From: Acinetobacter guillouiae CIP 63.46
GTDB taxonomy: Bacteria > Pseudomonadota > Gammaproteobacteria > Pseudomonadales > Moraxellaceae
Reading direction: 5' to 3'
DNA length: 19,869 bases
Assembly (NCBI RefSeq): GCF_000368145.1
Contig: NZ_KB849283.1
Location: forward strand, 688,455-708,323
Translations under genes and position numbers: made by a program
Shown here: positions 1 through 8,466 of the stretch, piece after piece
Layout: each line of letters begins with the position of its first letter
How positions within the stretch are numbered: position 1 is the stretch's first letter
Notes under the pieces: generated by a model
Databases searched by the model: none
The model's input: only the letters and a program-made list of their open reading frames with translations
What the model was told of the DNA's origin: nothing

Positions 1-17
1 TATACATTATACGAAAT
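1..17 (-). other. dif/pdif-like site A, copy 1 (central region plus XerC-type arm; the XerD side lies outside the window)
   Basis: Minus strand reads ATTTCGTATAA-TGTATA. It is identical to 6269..6285. Confidence 0.6.
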
Positions 18-24
18 GGTATAA

Positions 25-357
25 TTATACCTTTGATAACTCAGGAGTTTTTTGATCTTGAGCTTTCTTTTCTTCTAACTGCAATGGCTTACCGTCACCA
101 GTTGTCTTGTAATAAATATTGCGATCCATGGTTGATTGCTCAATCGGCAAATAAATTTCCCGACCACGATAAGACATGTAAAAATCTTTCATATGATGGT
201 GATCTTCAATTACTTTTACGTTCTGTGAACACGGAACCATTTTTTCTAAACCACGGTCATAACGTTCAGATTCGAAGATCAGGCGCATGTTTAGCCCTTT
301 TTCGTTTGTTGATTGTTCAACATTTATAAGTTTTGCTTTGAAGATTAATTGAGACAT
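25..357 (-). CDS. gV-like ssDNA-binding protein (assigned by position), 110 aa
   Basis: It lies immediately downstream of gII. The ATG at 357 follows a GGTG Shine-Dalgarno that overlaps the gII stop (TAAGGTGAATCTCATG). The ORF-track start at 366 is a GTG. I recognise no sequence similarity to Ff gpV. Confidence 0.6.
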   Translation of the reverse strand: MSQLIFKAKLINVEQSTNEKGLNMRLIFESERYDRGLEKMVPCSQNVKVIEDHHHMKDFYMSYRGREIYLPIEQSTMDRNIYYKTTGDGKPLQLEEKKAQDQKTPELSKV

Positions 358-367
358 GAGATTCACC

Positions 368-733
368 TTAAGATACGAGTTTTAATTGACGTTGATTGAA
401 TGTAGAGACAGGCTCTATAAAGTTTGGCGGTACTTGAGTTTCGAAATTGATTTCTACGAGTTTGATAAACGGTATGACGTTGTTTTTAGAGTCAATATGA
501 AGATTCTGTAAATAAGCTTTTGAATAACCAGCAAGAATCAAATCTGCCATTTGTGCAAAGAACTGGGATTTTCCATATTGTTTTTTCATTGCTTCACAGC
601 CATGAATTTCTAAAGCACAATAAAAGTTAAATAGATTCCTTGCCTTAGTTGTACTAACACGACCTGTAGGCGTAACAGTACCAAAGACATTGCACAGAGT
701 TTTAAAGATAGAATCGTGATCAGTAGTTTTCAT
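368..733 (-). CDS. Nested in-frame gene X analogue (C-terminal 121 aa of gpII)
   Basis: The internal ATG at 733 is preceded by GAGG 8 nt upstream (GAGGGTTCAGCCATG). The Met aligns with the gpX start of Ff (ours EGSAM-KTTDHD, f1 EGDSM-NIYDD). Confidence 0.5.
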   Translation of the reverse strand: MKTTDHDSIFKTLCNVFGTVTPTGRVSTTKARNLFNFYCALEIHGCEAMKKQYGKSQFFAQMADLILAGYSKAYLQNLHIDSKNNVIPFIKLVEINFETQVPPNFIEPVSTFNQRQLKLVS

Positions 734-1609
734 GGCTGAACCCTCAAGGGCTTTGAATATTTCAGAATTTGCTTTGACCCATAGGTCTTTTAAAAAATCA
801 GGATTTTCACGTTGGTGGCGTATAAGTTGAAATAAATTCGTTGGTAAACCGAGTTCTTTTAAAACATATTTCTTGATACCGGTTTCAAAGCGTAACAGCC
901 CTTTTGCCCACGCTTGTAAATCAGGATCAGACATAACTTTGACAACACGTAAAGCACATTTATCATTAGCTTTTGATAACTTGATTTGTTCTTCTAGTTG
1001 ATTCTGAAATTCATTAAATTTGCCGTAAACTTTACGTGCATAGCGTTTTGATCGTTCTGAACCGAAATAAATTGTATTCTTATAAACAATCTCTTTTTGT
1101 GATTTACGGATATGTCTTGAAGACATGTTACGCATAAAATCAAGGGCTTGTGCTACTTGGTTTTCATCTTTTAAACGTGCTGAATATGTTGCATCAAGCT
1201 GTAGAACTTCTGTTTCAGAAATACAAAGCATCGAGTAAAGCGTAGGATGTGATTCAGCAAGATAACCAAGCATTTCCATTGCACCTTCTTCAATCCAGTC
1301 AGAACCATAAACATTGTGACCTTGCAGAATCTTTGCTGGTGAAGCCTTGAGTTCAACATGTGGGTAATAACGACCCTCATGAAAGAATTTAAAAGCCATA
1401 GCTGTATGAGATGTGGGTAATCTTTCCCAACCATGATTTAAAACACGATGTTGAGTTTTACCCTCTTCATCTTTGTAGACATCCCAAGAACCAACTTTTT
1501 TAAGATCAAGATCAAGCATGTCAAAACCTAAAATGCAATGATTACCGTCTTCAGTGATATCAACTAAAGAAGCATCAATAGGAATATGCATTACGATTTT
1601 GTCTAACAT
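368..1609 (-). CDS. Rolling-circle replication initiator, Ff gene II protein homologue, 413 aa
   Basis: The start is taken at Met55 of the 467-aa ORF (MLDKIVMHIPID). It shows colinear similarity to f1/M13 gpII as I remember it: YPHVELKASPAKILQGHNVYG vs YPCVEIKASPAKVLQGHNVFG; LDATYSARL vs IDATFSARA; SDPDLQAWAKGLLRFETGIK vs SNPDLLEFASGLVRFEARIK; VIPFIKLVEINF vs VVPLVRFINVDF. Confidence 0.92.
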   Translation of the reverse strand: MLDKIVMHIPIDASLVDITEDGNHCILGFDMLDLDLKKVGSWDVYKDEEGKTQHRVLNHGWERLPTSHTAMAFKFFHEGRYYPHVELKASPAKILQGHNVYGSDWIEEGAMEMLGYLAESHPTLYSMLCISETEVLQLDATYSARLKDENQVAQALDFMRNMSSRHIRKSQKEIVYKNTIYFGSERSKRYARKVYGKFNEFQNQLEEQIKLSKANDKCALRVVKVMSDPDLQAWAKGLLRFETGIKKYVLKELGLPTNLFQLIRHQRENPDFLKDLWVKANSEIFKALEGSAMKTTDHDSIFKTLCNVFGTVTPTGRVSTTKARNLFNFYCALEIHGCEAMKKQYGKSQFFAQMADLILAGYSKAYLQNLHIDSKNNVIPFIKLVEINFETQVPPNFIEPVSTFNQRQLKLVS

Positions 1610-1726
1610 AGCTAATATCCACATGCATGCAAATATGCATAAAGCGGAACTTAACACAAATATGCAAGTATGCGCAATACATGCATGCAAAAATACATGT
1701 ATGATTTTCCACATGTTGATACTGGT
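1610..1726. promoter_or_regulatory. Divergent promoter/operator region between gII and the regulator gene
   Basis: ACATGCATGCAAA occurs twice (1621..1633 and 1679..1691), each containing the palindrome CATGCATG. AAATATGCA occurs twice more. Confidence 0.5.
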
Positions 1727-1927
1727 ATGAAAAAAATGGTTCAAAGCGTTCGAATAAACGATCAAGAGCAAGAAATGCTCAGAAAGAAAGCAGTTGAATT
1801 AAACAAAATTTTAATTCAAAAAGGACAACAGCCATTAAGAGATAGCGAGCTAATACATATTCTTGTAGAAGAAGGTTTAGAGCTATTGGAAGTTAGTAAC
1901 AGCGGTACAGTGAAAATAATAAAGTAA
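1727..1927 (+). CDS. Small ribbon-helix-helix-type transcriptional regulator (candidate phage repressor), 66 aa
   Basis: MKKMVQSVRINDQEQEMLRKKAVELNK...LRDSELIHILVEEGLELLE fits a beta-strand/helix/helix (Arc/CopG/MobC-like) pattern. It is transcribed divergently from gII, in the position RstR occupies in CTXphi. The start could instead be the ATG at 1736. Confidence 0.6.
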   Translation: MKKMVQSVRINDQEQEMLRKKAVELNKILIQKGQQPLRDSELIHILVEEGLELLEVSNSGTVKIIK

Positions 1928-1934
1928 GAAATAG

Positions 1935-7001: not shown

Positions 7002-7877
7002 GGCTGAACCCTCAAGGGCTTTGAATATTTCAGAATTTGCTTTGACCCATAGGTCTTTTAAAAAATCAGGATTTTCACGTTGGTGGCGTATAAGTTGAAA
7101 TAAATTCGTTGGTAAACCGAGTTCTTTTAAAACATATTTCTTGATACCGGTTTCAAAGCGTAACAGCCCTTTTGCCCACGCTTGTAAATCAGGATCAGAC
7201 ATAACTTTGACAACACGTAAAGCACATTTATCATTAGCTTTTGATAACTTGATTTGTTCTTCTAGTTGATTCTGAAATTCATTAAATTTGCCGTAAACTT
7301 TACGTGCATAGCGTTTTGATCGTTCTGAACCGAAATAAATTGTATTCTTATAAACAATCTCTTTTTGTGATTTACGGATATGTCTTGAAGACATGTTACG
7401 CATAAAATCAAGGGCTTGTGCTACTTGGTTTTCATCTTTTAAACGTGCTGAATATGTTGCATCAAGCTGTAGAACTTCTGTTTCAGAAATACAAAGCATC
7501 GAGTAAAGCGTAGGATGTGATTCAGCAAGATAACCAAGCATTTCCATTGCACCTTCTTCAATCCAGTCAGAACCATAAACATTGTGACCTTGCAGAATCT
7601 TTGCTGGTGAAGCCTTGAGTTCAACATGTGGGTAATAACGACCCTCATGAAAGAATTTAAAAGCCATAGCTGTATGAGATGTGGGTAATCTTTCCCAACC
7701 ATGATTTAAAACACGATGTTGAGTTTTACCCTCTTCATCTTTGTAGACATCCCAAGAACCAACTTTTTTAAGATCAAGATCAAGCATGTCAAAACCTAAA
7801 ATGCAATGATTACCGTCTTCAGTGATATCAACTAAAGAAGCATCAATAGGAATATGCATTACGATTTTGTCTAACAT
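6636..7877 (-). CDS. Ff gpII-like replication initiator, copy 2
   Basis: Identical to 368..1609. Confidence 0.92.
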   Translation of the reverse strand: MLDKIVMHIPIDASLVDITEDGNHCILGFDMLDLDLKKVGSWDVYKDEEGKTQHRVLNHGWERLPTSHTAMAFKFFHEGRYYPHVELKASPAKILQGHNVYGSDWIEEGAMEMLGYLAESHPTLYSMLCISETEVLQLDATYSARLKDENQVAQALDFMRNMSSRHIRKSQKEIVYKNTIYFGSERSKRYARKVYGKFNEFQNQLEEQIKLSKANDKCALRVVKVMSDPDLQAWAKGLLRFETGIKKYVLKELGLPTNLFQLIRHQRENPDFLKDLWVKANSEIFKALEGSAMKTTDHDSIFKTLCNVFGTVTPTGRVSTTKARNLFNFYCALEIHGCEAMKKQYGKSQFFAQMADLILAGYSKAYLQNLHIDSKNNVIPFIKLVEINFETQVPPNFIEPVSTFNQRQLKLVS

Positions 7878-7994
7878 AGCTAATATCCACATGCATGCAA
7901 ATATGCATAAAGCGGAACTTAACACAAATATGCAAGTATGCGCAATACATGCATGCAAAAATACATGTATGATTTTCCACATGTTGATACTGGT
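7878..7994. promoter_or_regulatory. Divergent promoter/operator region, copy 2
   Basis: Identical to 1610..1726. Confidence 0.5.
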
Positions 7995-8195
7995 ATGAAA
8001 AAAATGGTTCAAAGCGTTCGAATAAACGATCAAGAGCAAGAAATGCTCAGAAAGAAAGCAGTTGAATTAAACAAAATTTTAATTCAAAAAGGACAACAGC
8101 CATTAAGAGATAGCGAGCTAATACATATTCTTGTAGAAGAAGGTTTAGAGCTATTGGAAGTTAGTAACAGCGGTACAGTGAAAATAATAAAGTAA
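7995..8195 (+). CDS. RHH-type regulator, copy 2
   Basis: Identical to 1727..1927. Confidence 0.6.
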   Translation: MKKMVQSVRINDQEQEMLRKKAVELNKILIQKGQQPLRDSELIHILVEEGLELLEVSNSGTVKIIK

Positions 8196-8202
8196 GAAAT
8201 AG

Positions 8203-8249
8203 TCCGAAATTCCGGAGTTAAGTCCACACTAGAGATGGTGGACTTTTTC
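8203..8249 (-). other. Putative plus-strand origin, copy 2
   Basis: Identical to 1935..1981. Confidence 0.5.
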
Positions 8250-8331
8250 AAGTCTGCCCTTTCACTTAGCTCTGTCCTTCGCCTCCTCCTCCTCGTACCT
8301 CGTCGTCGTCGTTGGCGTCCATCACAGAAAG

Positions 8332-8360
8332 AAGTCGCATAATGCGGATTGATGTTAAAT
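8332..8360 (+). other. dif-like site C, copy 2
   Basis: Identical to 2064..2092. Confidence 0.6.
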
Positions 8361-8431
8361 GCACTGCATTTCTTAAAAAAGAAAATGCCATTTTCTGATC
8401 GGGAAAATGACATTTTAATAAGGTGCAATGC

Positions 8432-8466
8432 AAGTAACATAATCACGCAGTTACATTATGCGAAAT
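8432..8466 (-). other. Prophage/chromosome junction site (site B with host flank on the XerC side)
   Basis: Same 35 nt as 2164..2198. Host sequence begins at 8467, immediately outside the XerC-type arm ATTTCGCATAA. Confidence 0.65.

Follow-up and report, generated by a model that had tools for sequence, protein, structure and literature searches.

A probable array of an Ff-like filamentous prophage at Acinetobacter guillouiae dif, with a predicted CTXphi-type hairpin attachment site and a second dif-like site

CTX-type integration of filamentous phages is already known for CTXphi, YpfPhi, and CUS-1Phi (PMC4246890). In CTXphi, the attachment site attP1 has a central region of 12 bp and attP2 one of 5 to 7 bp; the two sites are inverted and fold into attP(+) in the single strand (PMC4246890). 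Acinetobacter prophages flanked by copies of a module of the kind that we call R below are also in print, in an article that compares them to CTXphi and YpfPhi (PMC11209303). Here, we analyzed a locus in Acinetobacter guillouiae CIP 63.46. The window, i.e., the whole stretch of 19,869 nucleotides (nt) under analysis, begins with 8466 nt of phage DNA. An initial annotation, made from the sequence alone, had described an Ff-like inovirus with a duplicated replication module, and had offered two models: tandem prophages cut by the window, or one phage plus an RS1-like satellite. Our results indicate that positions 1..8466 probably represent an integrated array, H-[R-U]n-R-H' with n of at least 1, of an Ff-like filamentous phage that lacks an integrase and occupies the A. 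guillouiae dif site. In this formula, R and U are phage modules and H and H' are host flanks.

Direct base-by-base comparison confirmed the duplication. Positions 1..2198 equal 6269..8466 at every base, giving an exact 2198-bp direct repeat at an offset of 6268, and identity breaks off at 2198|2199 and 8466|8467, as the initial annotation had stated. We named the repeat copies R (1..2198 and 6269..8466), the sequence between them U (2199..6268), the host flank from 8467 H, and the host flank on the other, unseen side H'. Two short sites are referred to as S1 (2171..2198 and 8439..8466) and S2 (6258..6285). A single genome unit is 6268 nt, made up of R (2198 nt) and U (4070 nt). The window minus strand carries all the phage genes and is therefore the phage (+) strand. 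By gene content, R is a replication/regulation module, of which one copy (6269..8466) adjoins H on the XerC side of dif; the second copy (1..2198) lies on the XerD side and starts at the contig end with the central region and XerC arm of S2. U is the morphogenesis module, as judged from Pfam and PHROG matches, so that a replication/regulation module is indeed repeated around a single morphogenesis module.

The left edge of the window requires care. The window corresponds to the first 19,869 nt of the A. guillouiae NCBI contig VZOG01000030.1 (GCA_008802215.1, 596 kb), and the locus that we retrieved from it (record range from 1), once reverse-complemented, equals window 1..13988. Window position 1 is a physical contig end, and the H' junction is therefore unreadable in GCA_008802215.1. 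The earlier observation that position 1 coincides with the border between the XerD arm and the central region of S2 was correct, but this same position is where VZOG01000030.1 ends. The coincidence is best read as a branch point in the assembly graph. Perfect identity of the two R copies is also expected if an assembler walks a collapsed repeat edge twice, and does not by itself prove that this strain has two R copies.

On the right, the insertion site could be read against empty loci. Ten phage-free A. guillouiae loci, including that of the complete genome CP058272.1, carry a perfect dif, ATTTCGCATAA TGTATA TTATGTTAAAT. This empty dif sits 103 nt past the same LysR gene that flanks the phage, in the context ...TTAATTTATATT|ATTTCGCATAA TGTATA TTATGTTAAAT, and the sequence before it is that following 8466 in the window. 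Since the empty loci carry a perfect 28-bp dif at the place of 8466|8467, the phage is inserted in dif; 8456..8466 is the XerC arm, and 8466|8467 marks the outer edge of the host dif XerC arm. The host flank H (8467..9469, minus strand) comprises 103 nt followed by a LysR/CidR-like gene (8570..9469). No match to an integrase, transposase, or recombinase was obtained for any open reading frame (ORF) of 1..8466, and neither a Xer activator of the XafT/DUF3653 type nor an integrase was found among the small ORFs of the phage and its relatives. With precise insertion at chromosomal dif relative to unoccupied sites, and no integrase or transposase of its own, the element has the sequence-level traits of an IMEX (a mobile, integrative element that exploits Xer).

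Next to this junction, we identified a predicted forked hairpin of the attP(+) kind at 8332..8466 on the minus strand, with a second copy at 2064..2198. Its top strand consists of the XerC arm ATTTCGCATAA, a 13-nt spacer, and a XerD-like arm, TTATGTTACTT; its bottom strand is ATTTAACATCAATCCGCATTATGCGA. DNA folding of phage-strand positions 8466..8332 gave -32.8 kcal/mol (z = -5.2). In this fold, the partner of the XerC arm (TCGCATAA) is TTATGCGA, about 115 nt downstream, and that of the XerD-like arm GATTATGTTA is TAACAT-C-AATC, leaving spacers between the arms of 13 nt on the top strand and about 6 to 7 nt on the bottom strand. All relatives checked, down to 45% gII identity, have the forked hairpin with invariant arms. 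Several unrelated distal stems all pair, and 10 pairs show two-sided (compensatory) changes. Inverted dif-like halves with a long and a short spacer are those of a CTX-type IMEX, and the two spacer lengths agree with those of CTXphi attP1 (12 bp) and attP2 (5 to 7 bp). The initial annotation had taken 2171..2198 and 8439..8466 for a plain dif-type site; this site is instead the top strand of a CTXphi-type forked hairpin. A hairpin formed by pairing of S2 with S1 was also considered and rejected, as these sites are direct repeats and the true S1 partner is found no more than 100 nt downstream.

In the window itself, the host and phage XerC arms are identical, and the exchange point is unreadable there. 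Loci in A. nosocomialis and A. seifertii (L032 and L035; comparison loci are numbered with the prefix L) are informative, with a host XerC arm (..CGTATAA) and a phage arm (..CGCATAA) that are one base apart. In both, the host base stands at the outer junction, in the R copy next to H, and the phage base at the internal junction, in the other copy; apart from mismatches at the junction sites, the R copies are identical. This pattern is the mark of an exchange at the border between the XerC arm and the central region, which is the exchange point of CTX-type IMEXs. The XerC-side junction, in which the host XerC arm is joined to the phage central region and the remainder of the forked hairpin, is what CTXphi-type integration would be expected to give. 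In a further locus (L039, 6700-6860), a junction between R and a variant R' module consists of an S2-type top strand, with the 6-nt central region TGTATA, that runs straight into the hairpin's distal stem and bottom strand. This gives an alternative folded att site, so that S2 and the hairpin top strand seem to be interchangeable.

The XerD-side border involves S2. On the phage strand, S2 (6258..6285, minus strand) reads ATTTCGTATAA TGTATA ATATGTAAATA and overlaps an extended -10 element (TGTATAAT); on the window plus strand it reads TATTTACATAT TATACA TTATACGAAAT. It is the sole 28-mer of the window within 8 mismatches of the host dif, from which it differs at 5, and 100 shuffles gave 0.0 dif-like 28-mers at 5 or fewer mismatches. 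Its core, CGTATAATGTATAATATGT..AAATCAATAACTTA, is near-invariant in 24 distinct relatives, and the flanks vary. A terminal copy of S2 opens the window at 1..17 (minus strand) with the central region and XerC arm, the XerD arm lying past the contig end. The nearest informative locus for this far junction is a metagenome scaffold (L006/L008; ERZ28594134 scaffold_44), in which the host flank is about 97% and R 96.5% identical to the window. Homologues found of the LysR gene that flanks dif in this scaffold sit in another context (AsnC/AzlC neighbours), none of them in an NCBI isolate. The layout of the scaffold is H-R-U'-R-H', U' denoting its own morphogenesis module, and its far junction reads ...ATTTAACATAA|TATACATTATACGAAAT on the window plus strand, i.e., host XerD arm, shared central region, and XerC arm of S2. 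The arm missing at window 1..17 is in this locus the host arm, ATTTAACATAA.

The same terminal-R junction (S2 XerC arm, TGTATA, TTATGTTAAAT, and host DNA) is found in L006, in A. nosocomialis (L032 and L034), and in A. seifertii (L035). It also occurs in L040, L042, L060, L062, L064, L065, and GenBank OQ693633, and a cut copy stands at the contig end of L054. In these relatives, the last 17 nt of the terminal R thus pass straight into the host XerD arm, and it follows that the XerD-side border was made by S2 recombining with a dif-type site. A host junction with a canonical XerD arm (ATTTAACATAA plus host DNA), which the initial annotation had predicted for its satellite model, is thus present in the near-identical scaffold and in several other arrays. 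We rejected the notion that S2 is kept solely as a promoter (TGTATAAT), given S2/dif recombinant junctions in many genomes. By analogy with cer or psi in plasmids, it is plausible that the primary role of S2 is to resolve multimers of the replicative form (RF).

One of these sequences was deposited as a 'complete circular genome': OQ693633.1 (Acinetobacter phage M02, 1-6243). The record opens in the last part of an R, about 110 nt ahead of S2, and then runs through U, the hairpin site, and R to an S2/host-XerD-arm junction at about 5927, followed by about 290 nt of host-like DNA. It appears to have been cut from an R-U-R array and not to be a true genome circle.

We then surveyed how the modules are arranged in relatives. 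Both host flanks are assembled around R-U-R in six loci (L006/8, L032, L035/36, L060/61, L064, and L065) and around (R-U)2-R in one, the 3.93-Mb A. nosocomialis sequence CM121371.1 (L033/34). Another (L066) holds at least R-U-R-U, its end being out of reach. Every fully flanked array has the form (R-U)n-R and ends in R fused to the host XerD arm. The R copies in the 3.9- and 4.1-Mb sequences must be physically separate, because they differ at the junction arms. The two models of the initial annotation do not rule each other out; arrays take the general form (R-U)n-R, and n is 2 in A. nosocomialis. A different state is seen in A. geminorum J00019 (L013, a scaffold with N gaps), which closes with U and then a perfect dif that has been regenerated, as expected of a plain CTX-type product; it represents a precursor state. 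Here, the terminal site of an older element has also served as the target into which a newer phage inserted through its hairpin. The region 4960-16000 of this scaffold is a dif array of at least 2 different inoviruses, one junction of which combines the S2-type XerC arm of the older element with the hairpin central region of the newer one.

The same R is paired with unrelated morphogenesis modules, at 96.5% R identity in L006/L009 and about 94% in L037. U and the U' of L006/L009 share only about 120 nt, and homology extends about 70 nt beyond S2 into U. Exchange at the module borders is evident from these comparisons, and Xer mediation would not be required for it.

What is the state of the array in this strain? 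In another assembly (strain MSP4-18, GCA_000414055.1), U is a separate contig of 4148 nt (window 2160..6307) with a 39-nt overlap with R at each end, which indicates a branch at both R borders; the host contig of that assembly stops 39 nt into R. The Broad assembly, which represents the same strain or phage, annotates, in a 2.34-Mb sequence, two gII proteins (ENU57592 and ENU57602) and two 110-amino-acid (aa) ORFs (ENU57591 and ENU57601), and these pairs of R proteins flank one pI (ENU57596) just before the LysR protein (ENU57604). In another read set, a Logan contig (L002, DRR015599_42) equals window 2169..8466, i.e., one unit, circularly permuted, with a 30-nt overlap.

One rival explanation is that a solo R lies between H' and H and coexists with a free 6268-bp RF, the R duplication being an artefact of the assembly path. 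The contig does begin exactly at the R edge, the two R copies are 100% identical, and the Logan contig is a circularly permuted unit. Moreover, a short-read graph separates neither H'-R-U-R-H from H'-R-H plus a free U-R circle, nor does it fix n. On the other hand, CM121371.1 (3.93 Mb) and the 4.06-Mb A. seifertii contig hold R-U-R or (R-U)2-R with copies that are distinct at the junction arms, pI stands between two annotated R copies in the Broad assembly, and no solo R with both flanks was found among the arrays surveyed. We consider this explanation unlikely.

A plain head-to-tail tandem, the left copy of which was cut by the contig end so that U and not host DNA lies upstream of position 1, seems very unlikely to us. 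Tandem units exist, as (R-U)2-R in A. nosocomialis and as R-U-R-U... in L066, but extra units would fit the (R-U)n-R array equally, whose outermost junction would remain S2 plus host DNA. A break exactly at the border of the XerD arm and central region implies two different upstream sequences there, the MSP4-18 contig that holds only U overlaps R by 39 nt on both sides and so places a branch at both R ends, and all fully flanked arrays finish in R and the host XerD arm.

Several points nevertheless weigh against the integrated array as we read it. The H' junction of this strain lies in neither the window nor the contigs examined, and the case for R-U-R here is built from the logic of assembly graphs, the order of accessions, and relatives. 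The Logan contig has its break at the S1 end but continues through S2 (6268|6269), where an H'|R junction present at normal coverage would be expected to interrupt it; a possibility is that RF coverage was high and that a short, low-coverage H' branch was lost to graph cleaning. The invariance of S2 could be partly due to the extended -10 promoter. Finally, no solo R was seen among arrays with both flanks. The simple version of a scheme in which the phage integrates and U is then deleted predicts that solo R occurs, and its absence therefore weighs against that scheme. The predominance of R-U-R together with the absence of solo R is not well explained by any simple model.

The array of R and U modules also places two replication origins around one genome. 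The ori(+) core, AGTCCACCATCTCTAGTGTGGACTTAACTCCGGAATTTCGGA, lies at 8200..8243 on the minus strand, with a second copy at 1932..1975. Read along the phage strand (8243..8200 and 1975..1932), it aligns with the stretch GGAGTCCACGTTCTTTAATAGTGGACTCTTGTTCC at record position ~5785 of M13 (V00604), which we take to be the M13 origin core; the alignment is clearer by way of a relative, the A. geminorum element, which reads GGAGTCCACGTCTTCTAATGGTGGACTCTAGTCC. The initial annotation had placed the origins near 8232 and 1964, and these placements agree with the M13-like cores. The two cores are in direct orientation and 6268 nt apart, exactly one genome, which in this strain is contingent on correct assembly. 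This spacing fits the earlier suggestion that rolling-circle replication from one origin to the next would yield a 6268-nt circle, as does the circularly permuted contig of 6268+30 nt from the other read set. Between the attP hairpin and ori, short repeats make up a tract rich in G+C, GACGACGACGAGG...GGAGGAGGAGG (minus strand, 8270-8320 and 2002-2052). The element is otherwise A+T-rich, and relatives are likewise G+C-rich between the attP hairpin and ori. The tract may be a minus-strand origin or a packaging signal.

The extra R could also be an autonomous satellite similar to RS1, i.e., an R-only single-stranded circle bearing the S2 XerC arm and the hairpin, packaged by a helper and integrated in the CTX manner into the regenerated dif. 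The outer junctions observed, along with an internal hairpin site left intact, are exactly what such a circle would yield; with one G-T pair, the hairpin bottom strand can accommodate the S2 XerC arm; and the R' element of L039 has an S2-like hairpin top strand. We regard this origin as quite unlikely. The extra R is the phage R base for base and holds no gene beyond it, whereas RS1 has rstC; no R circle turned up among the contigs, those with R alone that we examined (L010 and L063) being linear pieces with ends at or next to the R borders; and no solo R lysogen was seen. The RS1-like copy of the initial annotation is therefore not borne out.

The integrated R-U-R array could arise as follows. 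The (+) single strand would fold into attP(+), XerC would swap one strand with dif, and replication would complete integration, which would regenerate dif after U. Tandem copies would form or free RF would persist, and XerCD, acting on duplex S2 and the regenerated dif, could delete the last U, as these sites share the central region TGTATA. Alternatively, the RF might integrate through S2 beside a solo R, or RecA might join the RF with a resident R; all of these routes would converge on R-U-R with the sites observed. For phage production, the gII protein would nick ori at ~8228 and terminate at ~1960, and a 6268-nt circle would be released without excision, as CTXphi does. The whole RF might be excised by recombination of S2 with the terminal site, or by RecA or homologous recombination between the R copies, and S2 may be a route for the reversal of integration. 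We tentatively propose, as a possibility that we hold to be less than even, that the phage is an IMEX with two att sites: the hairpin would set the XerC-side border, and XerCD would use S2 to trim the array to R-U-R, to excise or re-insert the RF, and to leave RS-like R modules as landing pads, which would also allow one R to be combined with different morphogenesis modules. If true, the use of two att sites would make a nominally irreversible CTX-type lysogeny reversible.

The gene content identifies the phage. The gII/X-type rolling-circle initiator (413 aa; 6636..7877, second copy 368..1609; minus strand) matches PF05144 (7e-45) and PF05155 (2e-11) and is ~33-34% identical by tblastn to pII of the Ff phages and IKe; the nearest deposited phage by gII is Acinetobacter phage M02, at 45% identity. 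A 110-aa ORF at the gV position (6293..6625, second copy 25..357; minus strand; PHROG 15713) always comes after gII in relatives. Divergent from gII on the plus strand is a small regulator ORF of 66 aa (7995..8195, second copy 1727..1927; 85 aa from an upstream start at 7938; PHROG 5642), in a position analogous to rstR, from which we would suggest that it is a repressor. Comparison of its sequence with the PDB gave no informative match, and its single-sequence AlphaFold model was of low confidence (pLDDT 66.6; order strand-helix-helix). The divergent region between it and gII contains two operator-like 20-mers of a repeat family (7889..7966, second set 1621..1698). These, ACATGCATGCAAATATGCAT and the 90% identical ACATGCATGCAAAAATACAT, are 58 nt apart and operator- or iteron-like.

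The minus strand of U encodes a candidate major coat protein of 79 aa (5692..5931; weak PF05356 match, PHROG 2374), followed by a terminator (5685..5668), a pIII-like adsorption protein of 437 aa (4266..5579; PHROG 7568, 5e-140; weak TspB C-terminal match), a pVI-like protein (3998..4273; DUF2523, PF10734), and a pI/Zot assembly ATPase (2801..3988; PF05707, 2e-14; PHROG 197, 2e-71). These genes follow the canonical order of Inoviridae. An initiator with the N- and C-terminal gII/X domains, the canonical gene set, and an ori(+) of the f1/M13 type are those of Ff-like Inoviridae. The initial description of an integrated, Ff-like inovirus without an integrase is thus upheld by the gene set, the recombinase scan, and the insertion at dif. 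At the DNA level, the phage unit matched deposited phages over 48 nt only. Two small Cys/His-rich ORFs on the minus strand bracket U, one of 29 aa (KCKKCG...HFYNC; 6143-6232) directly after S2 and one of 59 aa (FCWFCH...ESH; PHROG 10717; 2406-2585) directly before the hairpin site. Both are kept in relatives, and their Pfam zinc-finger matches are weak only.

The host DNA near dif varies. Window 12031-17334 is a host island with a tyrosinase, PpoB2, and a multicopper oxidase, which is also present in L025; in other A. guillouiae (L022-L024), a hemerythrin, a DUF2171 protein, and a 176-aa ORF replace the tyrosinase island, so that a variable region lies close to dif. In one A. guillouiae genome (L023, 11030-12190), about 1 kb that includes two small ORFs (79 and 87 aa) separates dif from the VF530 gene, which other strains have on that side. 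The VF530-side flank of dif also varies among other strains, with VF530 present or absent and a LysR/MFS pair present or absent.

These results extend the CTXphi paradigm, i.e., integration of a single-stranded hairpin by host XerCD combined with production from tandem origins, to Acinetobacter, a clinically important genus, and to phages with true Ff-type replication. The (R-U)n-R form and the conserved S2 also provide a testable hypothesis for how irreversibly integrated filamentous prophages gain the second origin that they need, and S2 possibly offers such prophages a way out of the chromosome. The calling of prophage borders is affected as well, since at least one deposited "complete genome" (OQ693633.1) appears to have been cut from an array and includes host DNA.

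The described systems closest to the present element include the Af filamentous prophages of Acinetobacter baumannii (Viruses 2024;16:857, PMC11209303), prophages of the same kind in the same genus. Host species and phage differ, the closest deposited phage to ours being M02 at 45% gII identity, and the available part of that article contains no att sites, hairpin, ori, junction sequences, or mechanism. Our literature searches turned up no account, for Acinetobacter phages, of a hairpin attP or of a second dif-like site that forms a border. With the Ff phages (M13/f1/fd) and IKe, the element shares the gII/X initiator (~33-34% identity) and the ori(+) core, as well as the arrangement of the genes and the terminator that follows the coat gene. 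Unlike them, it is integrated, carries Xer sites, has no pIV secretin gene, and encodes a TspB-like pIII. Like the IMEXs of the VGJphi and TLCphi types and the plasmid Xer sites (cer, psi, and Acinetobacter pdif), S2 consists of one duplex dif-like site of 28 bp, whose 6-bp central region is identical to that of dif, and it has demonstrably recombined with dif-type sites. In contrast to the VGJphi and TLCphi types, S2 coexists with a CTX-type hairpin in one genome, and no XafT/DUF3653-like factor accompanies it among the ORFs that we inspected.

There are also parallels with CTXphi and RS1 at Vibrio cholerae dif1, and with YpfPhi and CUS-1Phi. They comprise the lack of an integrase, integration at dif, and the XerC-side junction; an attP whose two dif-like halves, one with a long spacer and one with a short, are inverted and would form a forked hairpin in the (+) strand; a small divergent regulator beside the rolling-circle initiator; and a replication module repeated downstream of the core, so that two ori copies bracket one genome. 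The present phage differs in its host, Acinetobacter, in its Ff/M13-like initiator and ori, and in a downstream R that exactly matches the R of the phage itself and lacks an rstC-like extra gene. The distal border of this R was made by S2, a further dif-like site, of the duplex type, which lies where the replication module meets the morphogenesis module; we know of no S2-like site at the RS2/core border of CTXphi. From its sequence features, the element would work like CTXphi with RS1, and it has the traits of a CTX-type IMEX and not those of an RS1-type satellite.

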